Positions 1 to 41,341 of a stretch of DNA of 64,000 nucleotides are shown here, one piece after another. Source of the DNA: a virus (Duplodnaviria > Caudoviricetes); the IMG/VR virus record IMGVR_UViG_3300031992_000028, one strand, 5' to 3'. Numbering within the stretch: the first letter of the stretch is position 1; every line of letters begins with the position of its first letter. A program made the position numbers and the translations under genes. The notes under the pieces are model-generated. The model did not search any database. It had not been told where the DNA came from and saw only the letters and a program-made list of their open reading frames with translations.

Positions 1-53
1 TGAGAAGCTACTGAGAAGTGTTTCATTTGCTAAATTATTTGAGGTTTGCAAAA

Positions 54-476
54 ATGCAGTGAAATAATGTTGATATAACTACCAAAGTAGCTATTACACG
101 CTTTCTAAAAGTTAAAAATAATTTACCAATTAAATTTATTTCAAGTAATTTTGCTGCAAGTGGCGAAAAACTTTATTACGCTTACTTTGAAGATACTAAA
201 TTATCTACATGATATAAAAGCATTAATTCGACACGAGAAGGTGTTTTTAGAGTAATTATTAACGAAGAATTTTTAAACTCTCAAACAAACGGCATTGATT
301 TAGTTGCTAAGATACCAAGCAATATATCAGATGAAAAAAGAATCATTTTAAGAATCGCTTACTCTATTTTGGTAAATTGACAAAGAGCTGTTATTGAAGC
401 TTATAAAACGGCAGAAAAAGATAGTAATAAAATTACTTATGCTAATGCTATGAATTGATATGAAGATTTAAAATAA
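54..476 (+). CDS. LRIAY-family paralog (code 4, 4 in-frame TGA)
   Basis: ATG54 to TAA476 is open if TGA=Trp; IILRIAYSIL motif; TGCTAAATTA at 28-37. Confidence 0.8.
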
Positions 477-477
477 T

Positions 478-819
478 ATGGCAAGATATAGTTTACAAGA
501 TGCACGTAGATATATAGTTCAAGCATTCATGAGACTTAATAAAGCTCGTGGTTTAAATTTAGCTTTACTTGATTTAGAGTATGCAGATTTAATGGGCTGA
601 GATTTTATTAAAGCTCATATGTATGATAAAACAACTCACACTAAGTTTGATAGTATGCTTAATGAGTTTATTTTTACCAGAGAAGATACTATGACAAATT
701 TAGACACACAAGCTAAAATACTTGGAAAAAATCTAAATGAAAGAGAAAAAATTATTTTAAGAGTTGCTTATACTATTTGAAGAGACTGGAAGGAAACTAG
801 AAATGTTGACGTGGACTAA
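478..819 (+). CDS. LRIAY-family paralog (code 4)
   Basis: Starts 1 nt after the previous stop; 2 TGA; IILRVAYTIW. Confidence 0.8.
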
Positions 820-1132
820 TCAAGACTTAGATGATTTCTGTGAACAAGCAGTCGAGCTTTTAAATAAGAAAAAGCAATTACAATTAGAATTAAGAAATTG
901 TTGGCTTTATTCAAATAGCTCTGGCAGTAATTTTCATATTATCTATCATAATAACTTTTTAGATAAAGATTTTCATTTATGTAGAAATGGTAGGATTTTG
1001 CAAGAAGGAACTATTGGTGTTGATAAAGTGGCCGAGCTAGAAAAAGTAGACGACATTAAATTAAAAATAGTTTTACGCATTGCATATTTTATTTATAAAG
1101 ACTGTCAAAGAGAGATGAAGGAAGATAAATAA
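803..1132 (+). CDS. LRIAY-family paralog
   Basis: Likely start ATG803; QAVELLNKKKQL...IVLRIAYFIY. Confidence 0.8.
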   Translation: MLTWTNQDLDDFCEQAVELLNKKKQLQLELRNCWLYSNSSGSNFHIIYHNNFLDKDFHLCRNGRILQEGTIGVDKVAELEKVDDIKLKIVLRIAYFIYKDCQREMKEDK

Positions 1133-1659
1133 TGGCTAGAGAAGTCTCATTTATGTTTAAAGACCTTGAAGAGCTTGCTCAAATTAAAGCAGGTGTTTTA
1201 GGTTATCTTCAAAGAGATATTAACAAGCTATTAAAAACAAAAGACTTAGATGCTGAATTTATAAATATTGCAACACCTGGAAAAGCTTATGGAAGGACTT
1301 GACTACTCTTTAAAGTTTATTACACTTGCTATGATGACCAAGATGATATGTTAGGAAATTATACGCATGTTTTCTTTGCTTACCCTATTCAACAAAACTT
1401 ATTTACAAGAGACCCAGACATGATGGACATTGTAGATGGACAAGCTAGAATTAAAGGAAGACAAGATAGATTAAGTGATATTGATTTAGTTAAGGTTAGA
1501 ATTCTTTATCATATATTTTATATTATTAAGTGTATTCAAGAAGATAATTTACCTGCAACCATTAAACTTCCTACTAAAAAATACATTGTAGTTGAATATG
1601 CCGATGCTGGAAACTTATTCTACGAGTTAAAAGATCATTTACCTGGGGGCTTTAATTAA
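1132..1659 (+). CDS. LRIAY-family paralog, divergent (code 4)
   Basis: TAATG overlap with the previous gene; one TGA joins it to ORF 1348-1659; VKVRILYHIF. Confidence 0.75.
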
Positions 1660-6333: not shown

Positions 6334-6488
6334 GACTTCTGTCAAAAGCAGAAGTTTTTTCTTTATTTAAAACTGAATCTCCGTCAGTCTGGCCCCAAGT
6401 AATTAAGAAATTGGGCGAAGCCCTTTTGAGGTGAAAAAATTGCCTTTGAGTCAATTTATTTGCTAAATTATACAAAGAGTAAAGCTTT

Positions 6489-6929
6489 ATGGATAAGATT
6501 TCAGAACTTCAACAACATAGAAACAAACTACTTGAGGGAAACAATTTAAGTACTTCAATTGCCAAGATGATCAGAGTCAAAGACCTTCCAGCTACCTTTC
6601 ACTCAGCTACCACAATTGCTGGCCGAGATGGTAAGACCGAGATAGTGTTGGAGCTCTTCATTGATGTATTGAACACAGAGAAAATTGCAAGAGTTTATTT
6701 ATACCTTACTGAGGACCTTTTTGACCCAGATAGCTTTAGTTATATAGATGGTGAAATAGGCCTTGGAGATAAGAAAATAGACATAGACGATTTCATTAAA
6801 CTTAGAGCTCTTCGAACAGTATATAATGTAATAAGAAATATAAGCACTGGTTATGCAAATGCAGTCGACCCAAATAAAATAATATATGTCAGAACTCGAT
6901 GAACAGGTATGTGTGATTATAGTAATTAA
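6489..6929 (+). CDS. LRIAY-family paralog, divergent (code 4)
   Basis: TGCTAAATTA at 6461; IKLRALRTVY; TGA6900 read through. Confidence 0.7.
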
Positions 6930-6941
6930 GGCGGTAATAAT

Positions 6942-7328
6942 ATGACAGACAGTGAATTTAGAACAAGAAAAATGATAGTCTTGAGGGCAATAGCAGCCTT
7001 ACAAAAACGCTTAGTTATTAAGGTAGAAGCCTCAGATATTTATATAAAACATGATAATATAATGGTTGATTTTATATATACAGATAGTATTAATTTTAAT
7101 CCACCAGTAGATAAAAAGATAACTTTAGGCTTCAGTAATAAATGATTTAATACAGAAGATTGGCTTACACAAGGTCAATTTGGAGATAGTTGAATGAAAC
7201 AAAATTTTGAAGACACAGAAGCCCATATATCATCTAGTGCTGCTATGTCAGAAGAAGATAAAGCAGTCTTACGTATTGCTTACCAATTCTTTAGATATCT
7301 TAAGCCATATAAAGAATTTCTTAAATAG
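6942..7328 (+). CDS. LRIAY-family paralog (code 4)
   Basis: Two TGA; the VLRIAYQFF motif lies downstream of both. Confidence 0.8.
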
Positions 7329-7330
7329 TT

Positions 7331-7711
7331 ATGAATTACCCATATAGACCCCAAAAAGAATGAGACATAATAAATATAGTTAAGAAAGCTATTAGGACCT
7401 TAAATAAGAAAAAAGGTGCTAATTTTAAGATGCGTAATATTAGCTTTGGTTTAGGTGTAGATGATAAGTATGGCTCAGGACAATTAGATACTACAGTAAG
7501 CTTAACAGTGCAAGATACAGTAAGTAAAAAGACAATAAAATTATTCTGGTATGAAAGCTTCTTTAATGCTGAATTACCAGACGATAAAGATGAAGTAGCA
7601 GGAGTAAATAAAGTAAGCAAACCAGAAGACAAAGTATTACTTAGAATTGCTTATAGCATTTGGTTCTGCAGACACTGAATGAGCTCACCACAAAAGAAAA
7701 ATATAAAATAG
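7331..7711 (+). CDS. LRIAY-family paralog (code 4)
   Basis: Two TGA; KKAIRTLNKKKG...LLRIAYSIW. Confidence 0.8.
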
Positions 7712-7821
7712 TTTTAAAATAATCTGCTATAATTAATTGAAGGTTGTTAAAAAGGGTGAAATAGGTTTCACTCAAAATATCCTTCTTTTTTTATACTCTT
7801 TTGCGCCGTATAATATAATGT

Positions 7822-8253
7822 ATGAACTTTAATGTTATAGACCAAGCGGTGAAGTTAGTAAGAGATAAATTCAAGATAGATTTTATCGTTAACAATTATA
7901 CACTAGAGACAGACCCAGAAGAAGTAATGATGTTTGGTGATGGTAATAAGCTTAGACTTCATAGAGAGCCAGAGCTTAAGATGACAATCACTGTAGTAGA
8001 AGACTATACTTCTTGGACCGAGCATACAGATTTAGATTATGTAATATTCGGTAGTGATATACAAGACGGAAGCTTAGTAGACGAAGTCATTGGTGGAAAC
8101 ATCAAAGGTTATGACTTAGCTATGAGGCAAGCTCTGAGACTCGCCTTCATCATATATAATGGAATCCAATATGGTGTAAAGAGAGAGCAACGAAAAGATT
8201 ATATAGACAAAGGTTGGCACCCAAGAGTGGTAAGTGTAAGAATGAGATACTAA
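7822..8253 (+). CDS. LRIAY-family paralog
   Basis: DQAVKLVRDKF...ALRLAFIIY. Confidence 0.75.
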   Translation: MNFNVIDQAVKLVRDKFKIDFIVNNYTLETDPEEVMMFGDGNKLRLHREPELKMTITVVEDYTSWTEHTDLDYVIFGSDIQDGSLVDEVIGGNIKGYDLAMRQALRLAFIIYNGIQYGVKREQRKDYIDKGWHPRVVSVRMRY

Positions 8254-10766: not shown

Positions 10767-11072
10767 ATGGCGAATCCAGAACAAAAGAAGTGACCAGTCA
10801 TCACTTGTCCACATTGCGGTTATCAATATGCCCCAGCAGAGATATTCATGCCAGGAGATCTGATTGGCAATCCAGAACAAGTTGTTAGAGATGCACTTGG
10901 CAAAATCATCTACCAAGAGTATGATGAAGATAGTGAACCAGCACAAGTTGGGCACTACATCTGCGACGAGTGTGGAAAACCATTCATCGTAGAGCCAGTA
11001 ATTACATATAAAGTTAAGAAAGAAGATGAGGCTAAAGATTTCAGTGACCTTTCAGCCAGCTTACTAGACTAA
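10767..11072 (+). CDS. zinc-ribbon protein (code 4)
   Basis: GAGGAG SD; starting at ATG10767 through TGA10791 gives both CPHC and CDEC. Confidence 0.75.
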
Positions 11073-11098
11073 TTCCAAGTCAGGGAGATTTCAGATAA

Positions 11099-12814
11099 GT
11101 GATCTACATCAGAGAGATCGTTCCAAGAAAATTTTCCGGGCTAAGTTCATTCTTAGTCTCTTTTCAGTATGACCCAAAGATAGTGGAGGCAATCAAAACA
11201 GTTCCAGCTTACTACTATCACAAGAAAGATTTGTGCTGAGAAATTCCAAGTGACTATCTTGCCACTCTTTTAGACACACTTACTTTCTTAGATAATATAC
11301 AACTGATAATGCTTCCTGAAACTGAGGTAATTCCAAATCCAGGCGATTTCAGTTTGACCCAGGCGGAAATAGACCAACTTCACTTCAAGCCATTTCCACA
11401 TCAAGTAGATGCGATCAACTACGGCTTAAATCCGAAACACACTAAGTGGCTCTTATTAGACAGCATGGGTCTCGGCAAGACTTTAGAGATCATCGGATAT
11501 GCGGAAACTCTAAAATCCAGGGGTCTTATCGATCATGCACTAATTATCTGCGGAGTAGATTCACTAAGACAGAACTGGAAATCCGAAATTGAGAAGTTTT
11601 CAAACTATGGTGTTAGAGTCTTAGGCGAATACATCACTAAGAATGGAACTATCAGATACAGAACTATTCCAGAAAGAGCTGCGGAGTTAAAAGAACCGAT
11701 TTCAGAATTTTTCGTAGTAATTAACGCTGCCACATTAAGACACGATGAAGTGATCGATGCTTTTAAGAAATCTAAGAACAAGTTTGGGTTGATTGCAGTA
11801 GATGAAGTGCATCGCTTTGCATCGTCAACATCGCAACAAGGTGACAATCTACTAAAACTAAAATCCGACTACAAGGTTGCAGCTACAGGTACACTTTTAC
11901 TAAATTCACCAATCAGCTGTTATGTACCTCTAGTGTGGACTGAGAACGATCACAGCATCTTGACGAACTTCAAAGCTCAGTACTGTAAATTCGGCGGTTT
12001 TGGTGATAAACAGATCGTTGGATATAAGAATTTAGAGACACTAAGAGAAGAAATTAACTCATGTATGATCCGAAGAACGCTGGATCAAGTGCGAGACGAC
12101 ATGCCACTAAAGAACATTACTTACCAGATAGTAGAAATGTCTGATCAACATCGTAAGTTTTATGATGCTATAGTGGACGGTGTAAAATCAGAAGCTGATA
12201 AGATCAAGCTCAACACATCGAACTTACTTGCGTTAACTACCAGACTTCGCCAGGCTACAGCATGTCCTAGTGTGCTTACCACTCAGAACATCGTAAGCTC
12301 TAAGGTCGAAAGAGCTGCGGAAATAGCTACAGATCTACTAGAGTCAGGCGAGAAAGTTGTAGTGTTTAGCATGTTCAAGGAATCTGTACAGGCTTTAGCT
12401 ACGATGCTAGCACAGTACAAGCCGCTAATCTGTACAGGTGATTATACTGAACAGCAGATCAAGTCTAGTGTGGAAGCTTTCCAAAATGATCCGAATTCGA
12501 AATTACTGATCGGCACACATCAGAAGATGGGCACTGGATTCACACTAAATTCCGCATCGTACTTGATCTGCATCGACACACCGTGGACTGATGCTTCACT
12601 GAGTCAGTCTACAGATCGTATCTGGCGAATCACTAACAAGTATCCAGCATATGTTACCGTACTTACTTGCGCTGATACTATTGATGAACGTGTTAGAGAG
12701 ATTGTTGAAACTAAGAAGGATCTATCTGACTACATGATCGACGGCGTAGAAAATGAGCTCGCAGTTAGTGAACAGCTTTCGAATGAGATGCGCAGAATCA
12801 TTCAGAACCTTTAG
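11099..12814 (+). CDS. SNF2-family helicase/annealase with HARP-like N-terminus (code 4)
   Basis: DSMGLGKT, DEVH, ATGT, GTGFTL, QSTDRIWRI; N-terminal FQYDPKIVEAIK..C(TGA)EIP. Confidence 0.85.
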
Positions 12815-12952: not shown

Positions 12953-13007
12953 AATATTGTTTACTTGTCATGCAAATCGCGTTATAATATTATAGAGAGG
13001 TAAAGTT

Positions 13008-13586
13008 ATGGGAAGAGATACATTAAAAGTTATGGGTGCTTCAAACCACTGTGATGAAGAACGTTCTAAGTTAGATTACTATGGAACTGACCCTCGTTCA
13101 ACTAAAGCTTTATTAGCAGTAGAACAATTCGACCACGAAATTTGGGAACCATGTGCTGGACACCACTTAATGGTTAATACACTTATCGAAGCAGGATATC
13201 ATGTGTTAGCTACTGACATCGCAGAATATGATGGTGTTCAACATGCTAAGATGAATTTCCTAGACGTTGAAGGAAGTTGGGATGGAGATATCATTACTAA
13301 CCCACCATATGGACTATCAACTGAATTTGCAGTTAAAGCATTAGAGTTGGTAAAACCTGGACATAAAGTTGCGATGTTCCTACGAACCTTATTCTTAGAA
13401 GGAACAAAGAGATATGAGAAACTCTTTAAGGAAAACCCACCAAAAACTGTTTATGTCTTCACAAATCGTCAGGTGTCTGATAAGAATGATGACTTCAACA
13501 AAGGTTCAGCAGTTAGTTATTCCTGGTTTGTCTGGGAAAAAGGTTATACTGGACCAACACAAATAAAGTGGATAAGTTCTAAGTAA
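13008..13586 (+). CDS. DNA amino-methyltransferase (N6A/N4C)
   Basis: DYYGT, IWEPCAG, DIITNPPY, YSWFVWEKG. Confidence 0.85.
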   Translation: MGRDTLKVMGASNHCDEERSKLDYYGTDPRSTKALLAVEQFDHEIWEPCAGHHLMVNTLIEAGYHVLATDIAEYDGVQHAKMNFLDVEGSWDGDIITNPPYGLSTEFAVKALELVKPGHKVAMFLRTLFLEGTKRYEKLFKENPPKTVYVFTNRQVSDKNDDFNKGSAVSYSWFVWEKGYTGPTQIKWISSK

Positions 13587-13637
13587 AATTAGAACTTTTT
13601 TATTTACTTTATCTATATTGTATGTTATAATATAGTT

Positions 13638-13811
13638 ATGAAACAGAAGATTAAGATTATTGACAAAGTTACTGGAAAGACTCTTGAAAAAGAAGTAGAA
13701 ATTCGAAATCAAGATCATTTCAATGTGCAATTAAAAACTCGTGCACATATTTTTCGTAATCGTAAAAAATATAATCGTAAAATTAAACATAGACAGAAAG
13801 AAGAGGAATAA
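13638..13811 (+). CDS. small basic protein (57 aa)
   Basis: Leaderless ATG after a promoter; AHIFRNRKKYNRKIKH. Confidence 0.65.
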   Translation: MKQKIKIIDKVTGKTLEKEVEIRNQDHFNVQLKTRAHIFRNRKKYNRKIKHRQKEEE

Positions 13812-13814
13812 AAA

Positions 13815-25479: not shown

Positions 25480-25524
25480 ATTTCTGCTTTTTTATTTACA
25501 AATTTTTAGTATATGTTATAATGT

Positions 25525-25795: not shown

Positions 25796-28699
25796 AAACG
25801 TTTACATCGAAACACTAATGTGATATAATATAAGTATGGAAGTAAAGATAACTAAACTTAACAACTTACAAATATGGCCAACTGGTTTTATTACAGTATC
25901 AGCGGTTCATTTTAAATTAGATGATGAAGATTATTTCTTGCATTACTCTGGCGAAGAATACGAAGACCATTTGACTTTATATAAAGGCAGAAACAAATGT
26001 CATCTTACTCGTATTAGTTCTTGCTATGGAACATTAGATGACTTTATTAAATTCACAAAAAAGCCAAGATGTTTAAAGTATGTTGATACAGAAAACTTTA
26101 TTGAGAAGTTAAAAGAAAAACATTTACTTTAATTTAAAAGTGTGTTATAATATTAATAGTGAGGTAAGAAAGAAATGATTGATAAACAAACATTAGAAAA
26201 CTTTAGGCAAGACTTCAATGAAGCAATGAAAGATTTAGAAACAAAGTATGGTTTTGTAATCGAACTTGGACGTATCACTTATACAGCAACAAGTTTCACC
26301 GGCAAACTCGAAGTCAATGAAGGTGATAGCAAAGACGACGTTAATGAAAAAGACTTCTATAAGTATTGCTCTATGTATGGCTTAAGTAAAGACGACTATG
26401 ATAGACGTTTCACTTTCCAAGGCAATGATTACATTGTAGTTGGCATTAGACCAAGCAAACGCAAATACCCGATTTGTTGCCAGCAAGTTCAAAACGGCAC
26501 CACTTATGGTTTCACCGCTGAGTGTGTCAAACGTTGCTTAGGCAAATAAGAGAAGACTAAAACTTCTCTTTTTTATTTACATTGAGTGTGAAACATGGTA
26601 TAATAATAGTAGGAGAAAATATAACTATGAACACTCTTGGAATTGAAAAAGAATACAAGATAATTAAAAAGGTTAGAAGAAAACTTTTGTTAAATGATAA
26701 GTTCGTCAACTACCTTCTAAAACAATTAAATAAAGGCAATTATGTTTATATGACGAGTTCACACTCATATGAGATAATTAGTCGTGAGTTGATTAAAGAA
26801 CTTATTAAGAAAGCAGAAGATAATGATAGATACTGGAACTTAGATTGTTTTGCTCAAGTGGCAGATTATCCTGAATACGAAGGCGTGCCATTTGAAGTTA
26901 CTCATGCTAGTCCATACGATCATCGTTGGCCTGGAGACTATGATGAAGATGCTTATGATGACTGGAAAGTAGATGCGATTAGTTTATCCGATTTACTATA
27001 CGAAGACACTTGGCAAAGAGAACCTGTGTATGTAAAGCATCCTGAGATGTTTGACTTTGCTGATGAAGAAGTAATAGTAGAAGATGAAAAGTTAGAAGAT
27101 ACGAATTGTTGGTGGTAAAAGAATATGAAATACTTTTGGGTAATTGAAACAATTGATAACGAATATAGTTCAAGTTATAAATATATAACTGATAGTAGAG
27201 AAGATGCCGAAGCACATAGAATGGATTACTGTGGTTGGTATTGTCAAACTGGCGATTGTCATATAAAAAAGATCGACCAGAAGTTTCGTGTCGTAGAAGA
27301 CATTGATTACTGGCGTGGAGAAGTTTGGGAACACAAAGTAAATGTCTACGATGACAAGGGAGTTTATGTTGACATCAAATACTTAATAAAGAAAGGCAAG
27401 AAAGTTAAATAAACTATTTACTTTTCTTTTAATCCGTGTTATAATATATATGTAAGAAAGAGAAGAGAGGTAAATAAAGTTATGAAAAAAATTAACTGGT
27501 TAATGATTGGTATTCTCATTGCAATTCCAATTATCTTAATTGGTATCTATGTTGGCGACTACTTTTGGGTTGAAAGTTATAAAGCAGTTCCAGTTTATTA
27601 CCAACATATCTTCGGAAATGATTTAGCAAGATATATTATCTTCGACCATATCTGCTCAGGAATTGTTGTTGGTATTATTACAGTTATTATTGAAGTATTA
27701 ACTATTATTGAATTCAAAGTAAAAAAATAATAAGGAAGGTAAATAAACTATGGAAAGAAATGAATTGTTAGATAAGTTCTTCGAAATGAAGTGCAAACAG
27801 ATGTTATTGAAACTTTGGTTAATGGCTTTCGCTAAACCAGGTTATGTCGGAAGTGAAGTTGGTCTTTGTATGAAACATATGGAAGTTCAATCAAAGTTAG
27901 ATAATGTCGAAGACGAAATGCTTAAATTACTTCAAGCAAACGAAACCTTCTTCAGAGGTGCCGACTTAGATGGTTATTGCCAAGAATATAAAATCTCTAT
28001 GGACAGACAAAAAGAAATCTCTAAAGAAATCTTAGATAGAGAATATACCATTGAAGACTTAATGGATAAAGTCGAAAGGAGATAAGTATGAGAAAGTTAT
28101 ATGCTTTAATTACTTGTCCTATCTCAGACAATCCAAAGGCAAAAATTATTCAAGTATCTTTTAATAAAGAAGAACTTGAAGAGATTGCAAACTATCTAAA
28201 TCAATTCCATTACTTCTCACCTAATGCGACAGTCAGAGAAGTTGATGAACATGTTTGCGAATGGTATTGGCCTAAATAGGGGGTAAGAAATAGTTATGGG
28301 TTTTACAACAGGTTTTTGGCTATTTATAGTTGGAATAATATTATATATTGGTTTAACTATCTTAACAGTTGCGATTACAAATAATCGAGAAGATGACACA
28401 CCTTTATGGGAACCAATATTACTTTGTATCTTACTAACACCTGTCTTGGCAATCTTATTAGAGATGTTGAAACCATATAAGATTAAACAAGGAGGGAAAT
28501 AAATAATGTTTACCATATTCTTAATCATTGCCGCATGGAACTTAAACTTACCACAGTGGCTACAAATATGTCTCACAGTGTTTGGTGTCTTACATATCCT
28601 GTTTGGCACGTCTACGAGAGTCATACATGAATATAGGGAGAGGAAATAAAACCTCTTCTTTTTTTATTTACACAGTAAGAAGAACATGCTATAACATAA

Positions 28700-29055
28700 G
28701 CTCAGATAAATTCATCTCACACTAGAATGGCAGATCTATCCGGCAGATCAGATCAGCTGCATCGGATTTAGCTTTACTAGAAGATTGACATACATGATCA
28801 GATCACTGTATCCGGATTTTCGTCCACTAGAAATACAGGTAGAGATGCTGTGACATACGGTAACACAGATGTTACATACAGATGCTTCACACTAGAATAC
28901 AGATGAATCTGCGATCAGGATACAGATGAATACAGCTGAATTCGCACTAGGAATACAGGATCAGGATATAGCATCGGTAGCTAGATCTGTAGCTTATTTA
29001 CTAGCATCGGATACTGCATCTAGCTGATCTAATAGCTTATAATACACTAGAAATA
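28700..29055. repeat. non-coding island with a quasi-periodic ACTAG(A) motif
   Basis: ACTAG at 28721, 28776, 28826, 28891, 28946, 29000, 29046; about 9 GATC. Confidence 0.75.
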
Positions 29056-29307
29056 GGCCTCTGTACCTGGCTTCAAAAACACTACCCCCTGGGCGGGGGG
29101 GGCGCCCTTTTTCACCTTTTTAGCTTTCAATAAGAAAGGCCAAAAATTTTTCGCGCGCGCACACGTAATAATAAAAAGAAAGAGTAGCAAAATGAGTTGC
29201 AATAAAAATATCTGCACGAAAGTTGCAATATAAGAAGCAAAGAGTTGCAGTTTGAGCAATAATTTTTATTTTCACTGTATAATATAGCATAGAGGTAAAT
29301 AATTTAT

Positions 29308-29826
29308 ATGGTTAAAGACAAAATTTTAAAAAATGCTGCTGAAGCAGGTGCTGACCTATCTGTATTTCATGAGCCAGATAGAAAGTGGAAGAATTACTAT
29401 ATAGAAGATGAAGAGAATAATTTATTATTCTTAGTTCCATCTTATTTATTCTATGGTGTTATAGTCTTAGATTTAGATATTGCAAGAAAAGCAACATTTA
29501 CTACTTCAGATGGTGCTATTCATAAACTTAGTGATTATGCTTGGGGATTATCTTCTACTTCAAGAAAGAGTTGCTATCCAAAAGTAGCTGTTATTGATCG
29601 AAAAATTAAATGTGGTAGAACTACAATATTATTGAATTCAGTTATTTTAAATAATGCAAAGCAAGAAGATGGAGTATTAGATAGATATAGCTTTGATAAT
29701 ATAAATGGTAATAAACTTGATAATCGTCTTTGTAACCTTCGTTTCGGCACTACAAAAAATAATAATGATACAAGATATGAGCAAAAAGTTCCAGAGATAA
29801 AATATCCATTTAAAGTTTGGTTTTAA
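29308..29826 (+). CDS. HNH endonuclease-like protein (possibly degenerate)
   Basis: FDNINGNKLDNRLCNLR matches DHINGNKLDNRxxNLR, but with His replaced by Asn. Confidence 0.6.
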   Translation: MVKDKILKNAAEAGADLSVFHEPDRKWKNYYIEDEENNLLFLVPSYLFYGVIVLDLDIARKATFTTSDGAIHKLSDYAWGLSSTSRKSCYPKVAVIDRKIKCGRTTILLNSVILNNAKQEDGVLDRYSFDNINGNKLDNRLCNLRFGTTKNNNDTRYEQKVPEIKYPFKVWF

Positions 29827-29873
29827 GTAAGCTATTAAAATAGCTTACTTTTTATTTTGCTAAATTATACAGT

Positions 29874-31610
29874 ATGAACATATTAGAAGCTTATAATATT
29901 CTTAATACTTTATATGAAGATTATTCTGATGGCTATCTTGAAATTGCAAAGCCAATTAATTTAAAAGATTGCAGAGAGATAGTTTCAGATGTTTTAGATA
30001 TTCGTAATGAATTAGAAGCCAGCGCTTGTTTAGACTATAATGGAGTATTAACCAGAGTTGCAGCAAAAGTACTTATTTTTAGAGACGGCTTAGAAGGAAA
30101 AGAAGTATTGCTTAGACTTTGAAGAACTGCCGTTTATTTACCTGGCGGCGGTTTTGATCTTAAAAAAGATAATTATAATATAGTCAATACCGTTAAACGT
30201 GAAGTAGAAGAAGAAATAAACTTAGTCATAGATAATATTAGACCAACTAGCTTTAACTATTGAAGATATGATAATAAAGCTTGAGTTAGCAACCATGTAG
30301 AAAAAGAAGAAGATAGATGGCTAGGTTATTATAATTATTTATTTACCGCTGATTATAAAACCACTGGAGACAATGATTTGCCTGAAGAAGCTGGAAGATA
30401 CAGATGGCATAAAGTTTCTGATATTTTAGCTAGGCCAGACACAAAAGAACTTGCTTGCATTAAAAAAGCTATCATTGAGAATGGTTATGCAGATTTAAAT
30501 GAGGGTTTATTGACTGAAGGCAAATCAGTCGGTTCAGTGAGCTATTTTGTTCATGATACTAAAGGACAACCAGCTATTACTGGCTTAGCCAAGATTTTAA
30601 CTTCAGAAACTATTTTGGCTTCAACAGAAAGTGATAGTTCAAAGTATATTTCTACGTCAAGAGATTTAATGTCGCATGCTGGATCAACTTGAAAATGTGG
30701 TCTTATTTTAGATGGAGACAAGATTTCAAATAGATATAAAGTCAATCCAATAAATAAAAATAGTATGATTTATTTTGGGCTGACAGCTGATAGCACAAAA
30801 CAATTACAGTTACGAGCTATTTCTAAATATGTTGCAGATGATAACCCAGAGTTATGCTTTTATTGCATTGATTTAAATGGCAGTCGTTTCTTTACTGAAA
30901 TTTCAGAACAAACATATAATATCTTTAAAGATATTATGTTAGCTTTTAATGCCCAACTTGCCGTTCAAAATCAAGAACCTGGAAAGGGTGGATTAGATAA
31001 ATATAAAGGGAGAACAAACAGCGATGTTAAAAAATATTCTGATCAGCATCCTGTTAGATATAATCGTCATATAATGCCTGATAAGCTTCCAGCAGACAAA
31101 CGAGATCATGCCTGACATTGTGTTGAGTCATGTGGGTACAATGTTGAAAACTCTAACCTAGTTTTAAAGTTATCTGAATTGGGCAATTATAAAGATTTAA
31201 TTTTTGAAAAACATGGTATTGATATAACTACAGCTGAATTTTTCAGACAATTTGCAGGACAATATGTAGATGAATCAGAAGAACGTATTGTTGCAAAATT
31301 AATTAAAGATGTAGACAAACTTGGAGAAGTAGTAGAGGGAGATACTGATATTTATGGTTTAAATATTTCCGGGTGTATTCAGGCAATTTTAATTAATATT
31401 AAGCATAAACCGGCCTTTGAAAATACTAACAGTGAAAAGCTTCCAAAATTAGCTGATGATAACGGAAATATTACAACTAAGGTTGATAATATTCCAAATA
31501 TTAGACAGATAGCTAAAATAATAAAAGACTATGCAAAACGTCATTCTATTCCAATAATTTTTTGAAATAATACTACTACAAATAATGATATACTGAAACA
31601 AGTAAACTAA
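29874..31610 (+). CDS. 578-aa protein with a Nudix domain and a possible ART-like domain (code 4, 6 TGA)
   Basis: Four track ORFs share one frame; LPGGG..VKREVEEEINL Nudix box; TGCTAAATTA at 29858. Confidence 0.75.
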
Positions 31611-31669
31611 GCAGAATTAAAACTTCTGCTTTTTATTACTATGGCTATAAAAATATTGTATAATATAAT

Positions 31670-32392
31670 ATGGAAAATAATATGGAAGAATTGTTAAATA
31701 TTGAATTTACAGAAGACTATAAAGAGCAATTATTGAGCATTATAAAACGTTCTATGATGCCCGGTAATACTAGTATTTCTACTGCAGAGGCATCAATGCT
31801 ATTTCATTGGAAACGTCATGAAAATGACCCTGCATATAGTTTTGTTCCAGAAGAGTACAGAGGTTATAAATAATATGCCAGGAAGTAATTTTGAAAAGGA
31901 TATAGCATTAGCTATTACAAGACAAACAGAGATTGTTAAACAACAAGTATTACTAGAATTAATTACTATTGCATGTAATTGTGATGATTTTAATCAATTT
32001 AAAAAAGTCTTATATGCAAGAGCTTTGGGCTTTATGAAAGAATTTGAAGATCAAGGTATGTTAAAGCCTGGTACAACCGAAAAAGTTGCTAAGGGTGAAC
32101 AGATGTCTGATTCAGATTTAAACATTAAAAATAAGGGGAAATAATGTAAATGGAGTTTAAGGATACTTTACGACAAAATATTGACTGGATTGAGTATTAT
32201 GCTGCCATTCAGAATTCTGAGTATGATGAGCCAATTTCTGAAGACATTCGTTTAAAAACATTAATAGATGGAATTTTAGCATTTATTGTTAATGACGAAG
32301 AAACAGCTGAAAAAACATCTTATATTAAAAAAATTAAAGCAGCTAAAAAACGTGAGTCAGTATTAAAAATAACTCATAAAATTATTGATTAA
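31670..32392 (+). other. three small hypothetical genes (31670, 31875, 32150)
   Basis: Contiguous ORFs after TTGTATAAT, followed by a terminator. Confidence 0.7.
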
Positions 32393-32469
32393 TCAAGAGA
32401 AGATTGAAAGACATCTTCTTTTCTTTTTGCTAAATTATTTGATAGATCAGCAAAAAGGAGCTTAAATAT

Positions 32470-33699
32470 ATGGCAAAACCAAAAGAACAATATAAGAAGC
32501 AAGATAATGAAATGTCCACTTGATTTTCTGATGCCGATTCTTCTTATCCTACTATTAATTTAAATCAATTTAAGTATTCTGATGGATCTACTATTGCTGG
32601 TATTACAAAAATTTGTCCTTGACAGCGTGAAAGAGACGATATTGCAGAATTTTATAATGATGGAACAGTAGACTCTTTTAAGCCGGTTTATGCAGGCGAT
32701 TCACCTAAGTTTACTGAATGAGTAAAGGTAGATACTGCTGGGACATATAAGTTATATGTTAAAGATAATAAATTACTCCTAAGCAATAAAAAGACTACAA
32801 ATGCAGTAGACTTTAGAGATGGAGTAATTCCAAATAGAATGGTTTTGTTCTTACAAGCTGGTGGTGGAGGCGGAGGAAGCTCTTCCGATGTTTTTGCTGC
32901 TGGTTGGTGTATTGGCGGTGCTAATGGCGGAGCAGGTGGTAGTGGTGCTGCTTTTGCAGTAGTGCTTAATACAGAATTACTAAAGGTTTCTGAATCTAAT
33001 TATTTTGAGATTAAGGTTGGTGCAGGAGGAAAAGGTGGTAACTGGTTTGGCCACTCGTCTCAGGGTGCAATTGTTCTAGGAAATGGTGCTGCTTACGGTG
33101 ATAGCGGTGCCGCTGGAGAAAGTAGTATATTGACTTTTGGTGATTCTAAAAATAAAACTGAGACTGAACTAATTGTAGCCACTGGCGGCGGTGCAGGTGG
33201 TCGTGCATCTGGATATAATACAGGTGGTCCAGGTGGTGGTGGCAATGTAACAAAGAAAACAGGTAGCGGAACATATTGATGGCCTTTACCTTGTACACAA
33301 GGTAGTACATTACATCAGTCTTGCTGACTTAATGGGGCTAGCGGTGGAACCTATCAGCATGCTGGAGGAAGTACAGCTGCGTATGTGGCACGTATAACTG
33401 ATAATAGTAATTATTATAGTAGGTCTGGTATGTACTTTACTTTAGGAAACAAAAGTGGCGGTGCAGCTGGACAAGGTGAGGCTCCTGGCGGTGGTGCATC
33501 CTGATTTGCTAATGGAGGAGCGGGCGGTGGCGCTGCCTCATACGGCAATCATGGCTCACTTGGTTCTGGTGGAGGCGGCGGTCGTTTTACTTACGCTGGT
33601 CACTTTATTGGTATCTTTGTGATAGGTATGGCTATTGTTAGCTTAGCTATTCAAGGTGGCGGTAATGGCGGCGATGGCTGTCTTAGATTATATTATTAA
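32470..33699 (+). CDS. glycine-rich virion/tail-fibre-like protein (code 4, 6 TGA)
   Basis: LQAGGGGGG, GGAGGSG, IKVGAGGKGG, GGNGGDGCLRLYY end; AAGGAG SD; TGCTAAATTA at 32428. Confidence 0.8.
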
Positions 33700-33794
33700 T
33701 AGATAAAAATAATGCCAAAAAAATTGGGAAAAATTCTCAATTTTTTATTTACTTTTAATATATAGAAGTGTATAATATAAATAGAGGATATATT

Positions 33795-34721
33795 ATGAAA
33801 AAATTAAAAATAGCTATACTATCGGTATTAGTTGCCGCTATGTTGACTGCTTGTGGCATACAAAATACTGCAGATAGTACTGTAGATGATGCAGCTATTG
33901 TTGAAGAAATCTTAGATGAAGATGACGATAGCCATAGATTTCCAATGTCTGAAATCTTAAATTTCTATAGGCAAGCACCGGTTGATTGTATTGCTATTCC
34001 AGATTATAGTAAAATAAATAGAGATACTGTTTATGAAGCAAATGATAAATTTGAAAATTATTATTTAGTGAAAGCAGTATTATCACCATTAGCAGATATG
34101 AATGTCTATAAAGATATGCTTATTTATAATGGTTGGGAATTTATTCAAACTGATGAAGATGGTATTGATACTTATCAATTTGAAAATACTGTTGCATTTT
34201 TGGATATTGGAAAATATGCTGGCAATGTTGGACTATCTTTCTATTATATTCCAGAAGAACCAAGTCCATATTATAAGGCAAAAGCAGATATATTAGAGAA
34301 AACTGTAAGTATGTTAGTTGACTTTGATGATGTTAACTGGAGGTCTTATGGAATGGGATATATTCAAATTCATGTTGGAGATGATGAGGATTTTAAGCTT
34401 AATTCTATGCCAGACCCTACTGAGTTTCCAGATAATGCTAGCGAAGAGAAGCTCTCTCAAATCACAGCTGCTTTAGAAAGTAGATTATTACCAGAGTATT
34501 TAATTAAACGTAAAGAGCATTTTTATACTGGCGATACTGATGTAGCATATTATTGGTCAAGGTATAAAGAACCAAAGCACTCAAATGTATTTGTATCACA
34601 ATATTTAGATGAAAATGAAACTATTTTGGTTCAAGTTGCCACATACTGCACAGGTGGGTATCTCTATGGTAGTGTTATCTTACTATTATTATCAGATTGC
34701 CCTCGTTGGGTTGAGAGCTAA
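33795..34721 (+). CDS. lipoprotein
   Basis: MKKLKIAILSVLVAAMLTA-C lipobox; early-type promoter. Confidence 0.75.
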   Translation: MKKLKIAILSVLVAAMLTACGIQNTADSTVDDAAIVEEILDEDDDSHRFPMSEILNFYRQAPVDCIAIPDYSKINRDTVYEANDKFENYYLVKAVLSPLADMNVYKDMLIYNGWEFIQTDEDGIDTYQFENTVAFLDIGKYAGNVGLSFYYIPEEPSPYYKAKADILEKTVSMLVDFDDVNWRSYGMGYIQIHVGDDEDFKLNSMPDPTEFPDNASEEKLSQITAALESRLLPEYLIKRKEHFYTGDTDVAYYWSRYKEPKHSNVFVSQYLDENETILVQVATYCTGGYLYGSVILLLLSDCPRWVES

Positions 34722-34774
34722 TATTTATTTAAATCAAGGTGCCATTAGGCATCTTTTTTATTGTATAATATAAT

Positions 34775-36600
34775 ATGACAGTAAAAGAAAGATTAATTAG
34801 ATATTTTAATTTGGTGCGCAAGCAGAGTCAATTAACTGTAGATGAATATCATGAGATGCTTCATTTAGAAGAAGCACTTATTGATGATATTGATCAATTA
34901 GACTTATCAGATGACTTACGAGAACTTCAACAAAAGTTTATTAATGCATCTATTGAATTAATGGCTGGTCCATATGCGATTATGGATACCGGAAATGGTT
35001 GGGATGCAATGTATGTTTTATTAGAAAGTGCATTACCAAAATTAACTGGCAAAGAAAGAATGGCTATTGCAGATTTAATTGGCGGTAGAATTGCTGTTGG
35101 TGGCCCATATCCAAGTAGAAGAGAATACATTAAAAAATTCAGGAGAAAGTAAAATATGATTAAACTAAGAGATTGGGATAGATTATATGTGCATACTTTT
35201 GACTGGGTTTTAAGAAGAATGGAGCCTGATACTTTAGAATTTTATAAAGATACTGAGCAAGATTGGGTAGAATCAATTAAAGCATTTAATAAAGTTCAAT
35301 TAGAGCTTTTTGATAAATATGCTGTGACTTATAAGTCTGGCGATGGCTTTAAGAAGAAATGTGTTAAAGGTTTAGAATTAACTGCAGATCAATTATTTGA
35401 ATTATTTCATAAACATTTAAATCTTTATACAAATCATACTATTAGATATTTTATTTTTCATTGGTGGAATGATTTAAGGTATTATATAGAAGGTGCACAA
35501 CCAACACTAGATTGTGCATTTGAATTATTTAAAGATGCTACAAAAGAAGAAATTGAACAAGCTAATAAAGATTTTGCTCATTATGAATATGACCATTACG
35601 GTGAAATTCAAAAATCTGATCATACATTTAATAATGGTAGAGTATTAGAATATCGAGGCATTAGATTTCCTCTTGATGATCAATGGGGAGACGCTTGGTT
35701 TAAAAAGAAAAATGGTGAAATTACACATTTTGAATTAGTTTGGGATTGGTGGTTTCCCATTGATGAGTGTTTAGATTTATATAATATTTAAGGAGTATTT
35801 ATGGACGTTACAAAAACAATGAAGTTGCCATTAAAGGATGTTTATCAATTACTTATCAGTGAGATGCGTTATGGCTATGGAAGAAATAATCATTTAATGC
35901 CAAGTTGTGGTTATGATAAGGTAAAAACTTTTGTCCCGCAAATGTATGAAGTTGATAAAGAATATGCTGTTTATACAATGAAGCAGCTTTGTGAAGAATG
36001 TATTTCAGATCAGCTTATGATGAATTTCTACGATGGTGAAGATGATGAACATGGAAATCGTGCTGAAGCTATTGAGTTTATTAAATGGAGTATGCAATGG
36101 GTTCATCAACATGAAACAGACCCAAGATATAAAGGTAGCACCTGGCTTCCATATAATCATGATTTATTTTTAGATAACTTAGCTAAGGATAATGAGCCAA
36201 GATATTTAGTTTATGAGCTTCGTGGTAAAAGTAAAAGAAAGAAATTAATTACAGTTGAACCAGTTAGTCAAAAGGAATATATTAATATAGTTTTTGATGG
36301 TATTGCTGAAGGTACATATCGTAAAGAAGACCATAAACTTACTGAAAAGTATGGCGATAATAGAAGAAGTTATACATATCATATTTTATCGCCAGTTGAA
36401 AAAGATTTTTATGTTAAGCATATATAGAATAGAGGTAAGCTAATATGTATTATGCATGTTTTAGAATTAAAAAAGATCAAAAAGATAAAAATGAACCACA
36501 AAAGATTATTAAGAAGGCTTTTAATACTAGAGATGAGGCTAGAGACTTCCTTAATATTCATATGGACTTTGATAAATATGATCAATGCTGGACAGAATAA
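34775..36600 (+). other. hypothetical genes (34775, 35156, 35801, 36445)
   Basis: Contiguous ORFs. Confidence 0.7.
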
Positions 36601-37460: not shown

Positions 37461-37602
37461 CTTAAAAAATAACTGCTAAATTAAATACAAAACAGGCCGT
37501 TTAGACCAAATCTAGGCGGCTTTATTTTATTTAAAATTGGCTAAATTTAGTACACAAATAAATTGTATATTATTAAGAAGAAAGGATGTTTTTTTATTCA
37601 CT

Positions 37603-39846
37603 ATGATAGTTATTAAGCGTGATGGTAAAAAAGTAGATTTTGATGTCTACAAGATTAAAAAAGCTCTTATCGGAGCAAATAGTCGTTCTCAAGAAATGTC
37701 TGATGACGATATTGAAAGAATTACTGAAATTATCTTAAATAAATGTAATAAAGCAACTGGTGATTTAAAAGTTGAAGATATCCAAGATATTGTTGAAGAC
37801 ACTTTATTAAAAAGTAAGTTTAATAGAACAGCTAAGACATATATTCTTTATAGAGACAAAAGAACAAGAATTAGACAAGGTAAATCTAAACTTTTAAAAG
37901 AAGTTGGTGATAAGCTTATGGGCGTTCATATTGTCAACCAAAATGCTAATGTCGATGAACGTTCATTTGGTGGTCGTAAGGGTGAAGCAGACAGTGTTTT
38001 AACTAAACAATATGCTTTAGATTATTGCATGTCTGAAAAGTCTAGAAATAATCATTTAAATAATGAAATTTATATTCATGATTTAGATTCATATGCTGTT
38101 GGTATGCACAACTGCTTATCAATTCCCTTTGATGATTTATTGGCCAAAGGTTTTAATACAAGACAAACCGATGTTAGGCCAGCTGCTTCAATTAATACTG
38201 CTTTCCAATTAGTTGCTGTTATATTCCAACTTCAAAGCTTACAACAATTTGGTGGTGTTTCAGCAACCCACTTAGACTGGACAATGGTTCCTTATGTTAG
38301 AAAAAGTTTTCTAAAGCATTATATTTTTGAGTATTTAAAAGATACTGAAGAATTCTATACTCTTAATCTTGAATCATTAGCTGATGAGGAAATCGATGAA
38401 TGGGTTAAGGAAAACAAACATAAATATCTAGATATGTGGCAATGTAAAGAAGAAGACTTTTATATTGGTAATGAAGGCTTAGACAAGCATTTTTATCAAA
38501 AAGCATTATTTGAAACACGTAGGGAATTAATGCAAGCAGTTGAAGGCATGTATCATAACTTAAATACACTTCAATCAAGAAGTGGTAATCAACTTCCATT
38601 TACTTCAATTAACTATGGAACATGCACTTTACCTGAAGGTAGAATGGTCATTAGAGCTTTATTAGAAGGAAGTTTGAAAGGTGTTGGAAAACTTCATAGA
38701 ACTCCAATCTTCCCATGTGGTATTTTCCAATATATGAAGGGTGTAAATGATAAGCCAGGAACTCCGAATTATGATTTATATAAATTAGCTTTAAAATCAA
38801 CAGCAAAACGTTTGTATCCAAACTACGCTAATGTAGACTGGAGCAACAATGCTGGCTATGACAGAAACGATCCTAAGACTTATTTCTCAACTATGGGCTG
38901 TAGAACTGCAAATGGTGCTGATATTAATGCAGAACCGGGTGTAAATCCACAAACCAAAGACGGTCGTGGAAATATCTGCCCAGTTACAATTATCATGCCA
39001 ACATTAGCTATGGAAGCGGGCAGAGATGTTGAGAAATTCATGGCTTTACTTAATACAAAAATACATGAAGCCAAAGATATGTTAATTGAAAGATATGAAT
39101 ATATCTGCAGCCAATGTGCAGATTCCGCTAAGTTCATGTATGAGAATGGAACTATGATGGGATATAAACCAGAAGAGGGCGTTAGAAGCGCCATGAAGCA
39201 CGGAACTCTTGTTATTGGACAAATTGCTTTAGCTGAGACTTTAGAGCTTCTAATCGGCAAAAATCAATGCACACCAGAAGGTATGGAATTAGCCAAGAGA
39301 ATTGAGCAATTATTCAAAGATAGATGTGCTGAGTTTAAACAAAGATACCACTTAAACTTCGGTGTTTATTATACTCCAGCTGAAAATTTATGCTATACTG
39401 CAATGAAAAAATTTAAAGAAAAATACGGTATAATAAAGAATGTATCAGACCGTGAATATTTTACAAATAGTATTCATGTTCCAGTTTGGGAAAAAGTATC
39501 AGCTTTTGAAAAAATTGATATTGAATCTCAATTAACAGGATATTCAAATGCTGGTTGCATTACTTATGTCGAATTAAGTTCAGCTGCAACTGGAAACTTA
39601 GACGCATTAGAATCATTGGTTAACTATGCAATGGATCATGACATTCCATATTTCGCAGTCAACATTCCAAACGATACTTGCTTAGAGTGTGGTTATACTG
39701 GTGAATTCAACGATCACTGTCCAGAATGTGGAAGTCACAACATTCAGCAATTACGCCGCGTTACTGGTTATTTGACCGGAAATTATAAAACAGCATTTAA
39801 CTACGGAAAACAAAAAGAAGTAGAAGATAGGGTGAAACATATTTAG
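37603..39846 (+). CDS. nrdD: anaerobic (class III) ribonucleotide reductase
   Basis: ATP cone VIKRDG, HIHDLD-like YIHDLD, TPAENL, CLEC/CPEC, RRVTGYL glycyl-radical motif. Confidence 0.97.
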   Translation: MIVIKRDGKKVDFDVYKIKKALIGANSRSQEMSDDDIERITEIILNKCNKATGDLKVEDIQDIVEDTLLKSKFNRTAKTYILYRDKRTRIRQGKSKLLKEVGDKLMGVHIVNQNANVDERSFGGRKGEADSVLTKQYALDYCMSEKSRNNHLNNEIYIHDLDSYAVGMHNCLSIPFDDLLAKGFNTRQTDVRPAASINTAFQLVAVIFQLQSLQQFGGVSATHLDWTMVPYVRKSFLKHYIFEYLKDTEEFYTLNLESLADEEIDEWVKENKHKYLDMWQCKEEDFYIGNEGLDKHFYQKALFETRRELMQAVEGMYHNLNTLQSRSGNQLPFTSINYGTCTLPEGRMVIRALLEGSLKGVGKLHRTPIFPCGIFQYMKGVNDKPGTPNYDLYKLALKSTAKRLYPNYANVDWSNNAGYDRNDPKTYFSTMGCRTANGADINAEPGVNPQTKDGRGNICPVTIIMPTLAMEAGRDVEKFMALLNTKIHEAKDMLIERYEYICSQCADSAKFMYENGTMMGYKPEEGVRSAMKHGTLVIGQIALAETLELLIGKNQCTPEGMELAKRIEQLFKDRCAEFKQRYHLNFGVYYTPAENLCYTAMKKFKEKYGIIKNVSDREYFTNSIHVPVWEKVSAFEKIDIESQLTGYSNAGCITYVELSSAATGNLDALESLVNYAMDHDIPYFAVNIPNDTCLECGYTGEFNDHCPECGSHNIQQLRRVTGYLTGNYKTAFNYGKQKEVEDRVKHI

Positions 39847-39847
39847 T

Positions 39848-40537
39848 ATGAAATTTAAAAAATTACCTTTTACAGAACATGCACAATTTGTATTTAAATC
39901 TATTCTTGCTGCAGTATTAATTGCTATGGCAGGTGGAATATTTTTACTTTGTACTAATACTGGAACAATTCAAGATCCATTTCTTGCAAAAGTGGTTGGT
40001 TCGTTCTTATTTTCTTTAGGCTTATGTGTAGTCATTGCATTACAAGCAAATTTATATACAGGTAAAATTGGGTATGTTAATAGTAAACATTTAGCCATTA
40101 GAGCTTTTTGGATGCTATTTATTAACTTAGGTATTGCATTTTTAATCGGTTGGCTGTTTAGAGGTGTAAATACCTCTATTCCATCTTTTGGCCAAGGAAG
40201 TCCTTTTGGGCCAGATAGTACTAGATTGAGCAAAGCTTGGTATCAGTTTTTATTTGATGGATTTGGCTGTGGTGTATTAATTTATCTTGCAGTGGAATTA
40301 TATAGAAAAACAAGAAGCTTCCTACCTGTAATTATGTGCGTAATGGCATTTATACTGAGTGGTGCTGAACACTGCATAGCAGATGCATTTTATCTTGGTG
40401 CCAGTCAGTTTAGCTGGGAAGCTCTTGGTGACTTAGGATTAGCTATTATTGGAAACACTTTTGGAAGTATTGCAATACATTGGTTACAAGTAGGAGCAGA
40501 ATACTTAAATGAACTACCTAACAATATACAAAGATAG
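39848..40537 (+). CDS. formate/nitrite transporter (FNT/FocA-like channel)
   Basis: About 6 hydrophobic helices; LYTGK, GCGVLIYLAV, FILSGAEHCIAD, IIGNTFG. Confidence 0.85.
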   Translation: MKFKKLPFTEHAQFVFKSILAAVLIAMAGGIFLLCTNTGTIQDPFLAKVVGSFLFSLGLCVVIALQANLYTGKIGYVNSKHLAIRAFWMLFINLGIAFLIGWLFRGVNTSIPSFGQGSPFGPDSTRLSKAWYQFLFDGFGCGVLIYLAVELYRKTRSFLPVIMCVMAFILSGAEHCIADAFYLGASQFSWEALGDLGLAIIGNTFGSIAIHWLQVGAEYLNELPNNIQR

Positions 40538-41036
40538 CATAAGCGATGGTCCTGGTGTAAGGGTTTCAGTTTATTTTGCCGGATGTTTGCCAAATAAGTG
40601 TGGAAATAAGAATTGTCCTGGTTGTCACAATCCAGAAGCTCAAAAGTTTACAGCAGGTGAAGAATATACTGAAGAAACAAAGAATTATATTCTAGGTCTT
40701 TGTAGAAATCCATATATTGCTGGTTTGACTCTCTGTGGCGGTGAGCCATACGATCAAGATGAAAATCAATTAATTGAGCTTTTGAAGGCTTTTCGTAAGC
40801 AAAACCCAGATAAAAATGTTTGAATTTATACAGGTTATGAATTTGAACAGATTAAAAATAGAGAGCTAACTAAGCAGGCTGATGTTGCAGTTGTTGGGCC
40901 ATTCATCTTAGAACAAAGGGATATTTCTGACGCTAATAGATGGCGTGGAAGCAGAAATCAACGTGTGTTAGACTTGCCAAAATCTTTAGAAAATGGCAAA
41001 ATAATCAAGCTAGAAAATATTCCAAATAATGAATAA
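40509..41036 (+). CDS. nrdG: anaerobic RNR activase (code 4)
   Basis: DGPGVRVSVYFAGC..CPGCHN, GGEP, KNV(TGA)IYTGY, WRGSRNQRV. Confidence 0.93.
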
Positions 41037-41101
41037 CCATATCTATTGATATGGTTTTTATTTTGCTAAATTAAATGCTGTTGACTTGGGAGGTTGACTG
41101 C

Positions 41102-41341
41102 ATGAACTGCTGAAGTAAATATTCATATTATGACTATGAAGAAGCTTATTTTAAATTGCAATACTATAAATGCAAAGAAATAGGCATTTATATTTTATCT
41201 AAACAAAAAGATGAATATTCAAAAAAACTATTAAAAAGGCTTGAAAAGTTTGAATATGACTGGTTGCATCCAGATACTAAAGATGCTAAGCTTCTTTGAG
41301 ATATAAAGGTCTGATTGATGGTAAATTGCAATTATTTTTAA
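41102..41341 (+). CDS. hypothetical protein (code 4, 3 TGA)
   Basis: GGAGG SD; TGCTAAATTA at 41064; open frame to TAA. Confidence 0.65.

Follow-up and report, generated by a model that had tools for sequence, protein, structure and literature searches.

Why does a phage that reads TGA as tryptophan use this codon freely in some of its genes and keep it out of others? The question is raised by a 64 kb stretch of the virus record IMGVR_UViG_3300031992_000028 (Caudoviricetes), here called the window, in which most of the TGA-rich genes follow the intergenic motif TGCTAAATTA and a block of small genes behind host-type promoters is free of internal TGA. An earlier note, made from the letters of the window, had claimed that TGA use tracks promoter class, that TGCTAAATTA is the cis marker of a recoded regulon, and that late transcripts need a UGA decoding switch installed by the phage. 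The first of these claims is borne out by the counts given below; the other two are not. The probable explanation is that the reassignment of TGA to tryptophan is partial in this lineage and that the use of this codon is stratified by transcription class, with UGA becoming decodable later in the infection.

The window has a G+C content of about 32% and about 112 credible genes, with the + strand coding throughout. Its source is best explained as a rumen-type jumbo phage of low G+C content and roughly 230 kb. Genes were called with a model of codon usage and ribosome binding sites (RBS) in which TGA was scored neutrally, and the calls are consistent with those of the Joint Genome Institute (JGI) where the JGI annotated the same stretch. 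The closest readable record is IMGVR_UViG_3300031992_000025 (G001, here called the sister genome), which has a length of 146.5 kb and is estimated to be 64% complete. Its DNA is 74-97% identical to that of the window, synteny extends from window position 19113 on, and the sister genome runs 107 kb past the window end. Among GenBank phages no annotated relative was found by megablast or tblastn.

Comparison of homologous codons shows that TGA is to be read as tryptophan in this lineage. In the NUDIX-domain gene at 29874-31610 (578 aa; 6 TGA and 2 TGG), five of the six in-frame TGAs stand at tryptophans that are invariant or nearly invariant among nine homologues of about 50% identity. When orthologous codons were compared between the window and the sister genome, TGA matched TGA in 14 pairs and was swapped with TGG in eight; TGA was paired with any other codon in no case. 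Altogether, TGA makes up 44 of the 290 tryptophan codons of the window (15%).

Promoter classes and the distribution of TGA

Three classes of promoter-like sequence were distinguished. Class A has the form TTTAC[AT]-N17-TATAAT; about 25 copies, all within 12960-28700, serve 39 small genes. Class B, TTGTATAAT(ATAAT), is of the extended -10 type; 18 copies were counted on the + strand, and a -35 element is mostly lacking. Class C is TGCTAAATTA, of which the window contains nine copies on the + strand and none on the - strand, the expectation from dinucleotide shuffles being 0.78 +/- 0.92 (maximum 4). All nine are intergenic, and the T-run of a terminator lies immediately before four of the eight copies with readable upstream sequence. 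The 48 copies collected from the window, the sister genome and the relative G002 have a downstream WWTGA in common and no -35 element. Counts on the + and - strands are 17/0 in the sister genome, 23/0 in G010 and 12/0 in G009; in G002 the orientation of the 23 copies tracks the gene strand, and the motif is found upstream of the head maturation protease and a tail protein. These regularities point to TGCTAAATTA(WWTGA) as a promoter-like motif of family-wide occurrence.

Tryptophan codons were tabulated in two ways, by the nearest upstream motif and by units that were additionally cut at terminators. By nearest motif, the TGA/TGG counts of the window are 32/44 in class C, 5/128 in class A and 7/74 in class B. 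With terminator-cut units they are 31/18, 5/125 and 6/71, respectively, with 2/32 unassigned, and TGA is associated with promoter class at Fisher p=5e-19 and, when whole units are permuted, at p=5e-5. The central 80% of genes give 0/103 for class A, 3/58 for class B and 23/13 for class C. The pattern recurs in the independent 107 kb of the sister genome beyond the window, with 74/157 in class C versus 10/134 in class B (unit permutation p=0.003). Without the terminator cuts, p is 0.011 for the window and 0.007 for the sister genome. Base composition is not the cause of the class pattern, because the A-ending share of the codons for Lys, Glu, Gln and Leu is alike in all classes (0.77-0.83); the TGA share is 0.02-0.04 in class A, 0.08-0.10 in class B and 0.33-0.63 in class C.

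The TGA-rich units can be followed along the window. The motif copy at 28-37 stands 16 nt upstream of gene 54-476 and opens a class C unit of six small genes (54-2764) that adjoins the tail-fibre module and jointly holds 11 TGA and 5 TGG. The copy at 6461-6470 precedes the unit 6489-8253 (4 TGA, 5 TGG), in which 6489-7711 is the TGA-rich part. The copy at 29858-29867 follows right after a terminator (29825-29850) and leaves 6 nt to the ATG of the NUDIX gene. Further copies lie at 32428-32437, upstream of a gene without a family match (32470-33699, 409 aa; 6 TGA, 3 TGG), and at 41064-41073, between the terminator 41035-41056 and gene 41102-41341 (79 aa; 3 TGA, 1 TGG), all three TGAs of which are kept in the sister genome. 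Together with a HAD-like gene of class B these are the TGA-rich genes of the window, and most of them have no match in Pfam or PHROG.

The assignment of TGA-rich units to TGCTAAATTA in the earlier note holds overall, but not for gene 63033-63311. This gene is preceded by the one-mismatch copy CGCTAAATTA (62994-63003), and the exact copy at 63321-63330 lies downstream of it; at the orthologous site of the sister genome the motif is exact. The gene nrdD (37603-39846), placed behind TGCTAAATTA by the same note, does use TGG only (0 TGA, 5 TGG), but between the motif copy at 37474-37483 and the gene a terminator-like hairpin intervenes (37494-37522). The copy at 58625-58634 is upstream of gene 58665-58865 (66 aa), which has no Trp codon; the gene gave no Pfam match, and its identity as S21 is unconfirmed. 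Behind TTGTATAAT, TGA had been described as sporadic. The class B counts are indeed low (6/71 in the terminator-cut units), but six of the seven class B TGAs are concentrated in a single operon (promoter and genes 54462-57331, genes 54499-57331), which includes the HAD-like gene at 56452-57087 (3 TGA, 2 TGG; 5/0 in the orthologue of the sister genome).

Several copies of the motif have a particular downstream arrangement. The hairpin upstream of nrdD (motif and hairpin at 37474-37540) consists of 12 pairs and a T-run; the arrangement is conserved in the sister genome, where a second motif-like copy, GGCTAAATTT, is located beyond the hairpin. This hairpin may be an attenuator or may yield a short RNA. 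The copy at 63321-63330 is followed by a hairpin and no open reading frame (63321-63400), and the copy at 2766-2775 by a T-run hairpin, beyond which a TTGTATAAT promoter stands at 2840 (2766-2840). Copies of this kind may specify small RNAs or act as decoy promoters. The 6-nt gap between TGCTAAATTA and the NUDIX gene contains no RBS, and the mRNA would have no leader or almost none; in the NUDIX cassettes of two relatives, L061 and L185, about 35 nt with AGGAG are retained as a leader.

In the sister genome, the most TGA-saturated single-gene cassettes are three free-standing endonuclease genes behind TGCTAAATTA. One is DUF559 endonuclease-like (61242-62054; TGA/TGG 7/3) and two are of the GIY-YIG homing-endonuclease type (62992-63783, 5/1; 121018-121626, 8/1). 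Two of the three cassettes lie at the edge of a tRNA array. TGA is also present in the genes for a lipase, a glycosyltransferase and PhoH, and in the class C units for large LRR and carbohydrate-binding proteins (11/28, 8/7 and 4/7). The genes for DNA polymerase, clamp and RecA have no TGA.

The early block

Class A genes are presumably the early genes, transcribed from promoters of the host sigma-A type. Their block at 13008-28650 contains 39 called genes with 72 TGG and no internal TGA. The description of this block as TGG-only, with more than 35 genes, is therefore correct, while its supposed single TGA exception has to be amended to two, one at 17619 (TGATAA, gene 17373-17621) and one at 21227 in the sigma-like gene at 20330-21229. 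Both are best read as stop codons, the latter because the homologues of the sigma-like protein, with lengths of 290-299 aa, end at the same place. Class A TGAs outside the N-terminal 10% of their genes stand 0, 2 and 5 codons ahead of a TAA. A small CxxC protein and the SNF2 helicase (10767-12814) have one TGA each near the N-terminus, at 10791 and 11237. A distance of 393 nt separates these two genes from the closest upstream promoter of class A, so that their promoter class is uncertain, and the TGA at 11237 may precede the true start of the helicase.

The orthologues of the window and the sister genome allow the exclusion of TGA to be expressed as a rate. Synonymous G-to-A changes at the third positions of Lys, Glu and Gln codons amount to 40-44%. 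A change from TGG to TGA was found at none of 39 positions in class A (p=1.6e-9), at 5 of 38 in class B (p=4.5e-5) and at 1 of 25 in unassigned genes. TGG-to-TGA is far rarer than the other G-to-A changes, and TGA is therefore actively kept out of the genes of class A, class B and the unassigned group. For classes A and B the codon alignments show selection against TGA. The earlier suggestion that the early genes are readable by a standard-code host agrees with these results, as the genes have no internal TGA, use TGA as a stop, and show no TGG-to-TGA change where about 40% would be expected.

The sigma-like gene (20330-21229, + strand, 299 aa) has a class A promoter at 19963 and ends on the TGA at 21227. 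Structure modelling points to a probable divergent sigma factor. The AlphaFold model has a pLDDT of 91. Nearly all of the top 50 rows of a Foldseek search with this model are sigma factors, with weak E-values, and all 50 top rows of VIA-align are sigma factors as well. Residues 1-135 align with the sigma-2 domains of sigma-E, pro-sigma-K, SigW and SigA at Z 7.2-8.4 and an rmsd of 2.5-3.7 Å over 90-114 residues, Z values that are middling for a helical domain. Homologues are encoded in all four motif-bearing relatives (the sister genome, G002, G009 and G010). The protein probably reads TGCTAAATTA.

Standard-code relatives, host and decoder

Relatives in standard code separate the motif from the recoding. 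G002 is a complete genome of 180.8 kb with direct terminal repeats; it has 6 central TGA versus 436 TGG, and 13% of its stops are TGA. G010 is likewise complete (148 kb), and in both G009 and G010 translation in code 4 lengthens the open reading frames of the coding strand hardly at all. In G002 (23 copies), G010 (23), G009 (12) and L185 the motif TGCTAAATTA precedes TGA-free genes. A cassette composed of terminator, TGCTAAATTA and NUDIX gene is common to the window, L061 and L185, with about 50% protein identity. Its TGA/TGG counts are 6/2 in the window, 10/1 in the recoded 220-kb L061 and 0/12 in the standard-code L185; the neighbours of the cassette in L061 are TGG-only. In IMG/VR the NUDIX family gave one weak match only. 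From the distribution across these genomes, TGCTAAATTA is seen to be older than the recoding and to mark a transcription class independently of it; in recoded lineages, TGA accumulates within this class. The motif as cis marker of a recoded regulon was rejected, as the standard-code relatives carry it and as, in the window itself, the TGA-free gene 58665 and (past the hairpin) nrdD stand behind it.

The same comparison bears on a different origin of the association. Mobile cassettes from fully recoded phages could have brought TGA together with their own TGCTAAATTA, in which case promoter class would reflect where the genes came from rather than how they are regulated. Many of the TGA-rich units consist of a single gene between terminators, the NUDIX gene and the gene at 32470 fall within 29302-34783, a region with no DNA-level alignment to the sister genome, and the three TGA-saturated cassettes of the latter are GIY-YIG or DUF559 endonucleases. 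However, a standard-code phage has the NUDIX cassette with the same promoter and no TGA, so that TGA built up locally. TGA is also found in class C units of several genes, with large LRR and carbohydrate-binding genes among them, and its strong counter-selection in classes A and B demands a functional cause regardless of gene origin. An explanation by imported cassettes is considered quite improbable.

The host itself could use code 4, with the bias arising from tRNA supply or codon preference. In keeping with such a host, no suppressor tRNA was found in the window or the sister genome. With about 80% of synonymous codons ending in A, though, TGA would be predicted to dominate everywhere, and the early genes have 0/103. 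A code-4 host is very unlikely, because TGA in early genes is under strong negative selection and is used as a stop there, and because relatives with the same promoter, such as G002 with its TGA stops, are in standard code. The formate-tetrahydrofolate ligase (FTHFS) of the sister genome offers a weak hint to the host: its best matches, at 52-56% identity, are mostly from Clostridia/Lachnospiraceae, with some from Alphaproteobacteria. We infer a host in standard code, and the pattern in the data fits a temporal code switch on such a host.

Under the preferred reading, with usage stratified by transcription class, class A genes would be expressed early; they keep to strict standard code, TGA still being a stop. 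Class B genes, behind the extended -10 element TTGTATAAT that lacks a -35 element, contain TGA rarely. Class C genes tolerate TGA as tryptophan, and TGCTAAATTA(WWTGA) would be their middle or late promoter. The early-encoded sigma-like protein probably helps to read this promoter. The highest TGA frequencies are those of single-gene cassettes of an accessory or selfish kind (NUDIX, homing endonucleases); the large LRR and carbohydrate-binding proteins of the sister genome contain TGA as well. In the simplest mechanism, UGA could not be decoded on a standard-code host at the start of the infection but could be at a later stage. A TGA in an early gene would on this view be lethal, and one in a late gene almost neutral or even a useful gate. 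The order in which the classes are expressed and the code switch itself are inferred.

Several points weigh against this reading. One class B operon contains TGA-rich genes, and class C is heterogeneous, as gene 58665 and several large genes of the sister genome (1/16, 0/12) are poor in TGA. The sigma assignment relies on Z scores that are middling for a helical fold, and the protein has no sequence match in Pfam, PHROG or the PDB, the last searched with a 43-sequence profile. No tRNA(UCA), RF1 or TrpRS was found within the window or the 146-kb sister genome with its estimated completeness of 64%, and the decoding switch which the phage had been supposed to install thus has no visible counterpart among these genes, the 39 tRNA genes of the sister genome included. 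Nor was there a ribozyme or group I intron match in the tRNA arrays of that genome.

The search for a UCA anticodon was made with ARAGORN, with and without introns, and with the Rfam tRNA model, and gave none in the window, G001-G005, G007, G009 and G010. RF1/RF2 (PF00472) and TrpRS (PF00579) were not found in G001-G004. A permissive Rfam scan of the larger tRNA region of the sister genome (L042) revealed no group I intron and no split tRNA. The absence of a UGA decoder is common, because TGA suppressors were detected in only 35% of comparable genomes by Borges et al. (10.1101/2021.08.26.457843). The sister genome carries a tRNA-Trp(CCA); a hand reading of its sequence gave an ordinary U11:G24 pair, by which a Hirsh-type suppressor is ruled out. 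Three aberrant tRNA-like genes, none with a UCA anticodon, are located at 45677-45764, 47549-47660 and 48045-48118 of the sister genome (7678-7765, 9550-9661 and 10046-10119 in the coordinates of L042). One has an inserted hairpin, one an anticodon loop of 6 nt, and the third apparently an anticodon loop of 8 nt with a variable arm of about 43 nt.

Without a discrete switch, UGA might be read leakily by near-cognate tRNA-Trp(CCA), also supplied by the phage, with TGA confined to low-abundance proteins; the link to promoter class would then follow indirectly from protein abundance. No tRNA(UCA), RF1 or TrpRS was found, while tRNA-Trp(CCA) is present in the phage and in all its relatives, and the homing endonucleases and accessory enzymes are the most TGA-rich genes, both of which would suit leaky decoding. 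Genes with 6-10 TGAs (NUDIX, GIY-YIG) would, on the other hand, yield almost no full-length product, and the large class C LRR and carbohydrate-binding proteins of the sister genome are rich in TGA. The 39 early genes are mostly small ORFans of varied likely abundance; nevertheless they have no internal TGA against 72 TGG and no TGG-to-TGA change at 39 positions. Leaky decoding is rated as rather unlikely.

A further idea retains the late code switch and dispenses with tRNA(UCA). Late tryptophan would be inserted by another route, and the motif/sigma switch and the decoding switch would together form a two-key timer. This is a speculation to which little weight is given. One possible route is a disabled host RF2 combined with a flood of phage tRNA-Trp(CCA); another is offered by the aberrant tRNA-like genes of the sister genome with their 6-nt and 8-nt anticodon loops.

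Gene content and comparison with known systems

Recognisable genes of the window encode an SNF2 helicase, NrdD, a formate/nitrite transporter, NrdG, a DNA ligase, a CCA-adding enzyme, a Pnkp-type RNA repair enzyme and a NUDIX protein, that is, auxiliary and nucleic-acid functions. Tail-fibre genes lie directly upstream of the window start on contigs with the same proteins. The gene for the formate/nitrite transporter (39848-40537) is located between nrdD and nrdG, and the FTHFS gene of the sister genome (112191-113798) is full length; the two suggest a possible auxiliary metabolism of formate and one-carbon units. The sister genome also encodes, at 91891-94290, a 799-aa protein with a carbohydrate-binding module and a C-terminal ribosomal L7/L12 domain. 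In the window, a G/C-rich palindromic tract, CCCCCTGGGCGGGGGGGGCGCCC, was observed at 29085-29113 inside the gene-poor region 28500-29300, in a genome of otherwise 32% GC.

In T4, the late sigma factor gp55 acts with the late promoter TATAAATA, and SPO1 has gp28 and gp33-34. The classes described here resemble those of T4 and SPO1 in that host-type early promoters are followed by phage-specific -10-like promoters without a -35 element, in the presence of a small divergent sigma-like gene among the early genes, and in free-standing homing endonucleases under non-early control. They differ from T4 in the motif itself (TGCTAAATTA-WWTGA), in the sigma-like protein, which has no sequence match to sigma families, and in that the classes are defined by sequence. 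The phages of Mycoplasma and Spiroplasma, whose hosts use code 4, likewise have TGA coding for tryptophan, but there TGA is used throughout and never as a stop. Here it accounts for 44 of 290 Trp codons, is absent from the inside of early genes and serves as a stop in them.

The closest parallel is given by the code-4 phages of gut and rumen (Agate and Jade clades) reported by Borges et al. (10.1101/2021.08.26.457843; later Nat Microbiol 2022), in which TGA is recoded to tryptophan on standard-code hosts. Recoded codons were found there in late, structural and accessory genes, and a code switch in mid-infection was proposed (10.1101/2021.08.26.457843); the idea of a late switch is thus already published. 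A TGA suppressor tRNA was detectable in 35% of the code-4 genomes, leaving 65% without (10.1101/2021.08.26.457843). The present lineage is similar in its low G+C content, in TGA as tryptophan, in other modules kept in standard code, and in very close standard-code relatives. It differs in the mapping of the partition to explicit promoter motifs (the word 'promoter' is absent from that paper), in a direct measurement of how strongly TGA is disfavoured in early genes, and in the lack of a UCA anticodon among the 39 tRNAs of the sister genome. A lysis bias is also reported by Borges et al.; here no lysis genes were identified. The promoter partition and the measurement of selection are added detail on a published pattern and not a new kind of system.

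The published idea of a mid-infection switch rests mostly on which functional modules hold recoded stops. This lineage provides a sharper handle, with three sequence-defined promoter classes, a candidate early sigma factor, and standard-code relatives that have the same promoter and the same cassettes. It is also a lineage in which no decoding agent was found although the tRNA set is nearly complete. The comparison of orthologues gives a direct evolutionary measure of strong selection against TGA in early genes (0/39 versus about 40% expected). Given a host or a metatranscriptome, the timing hypothesis becomes testable gene by gene.

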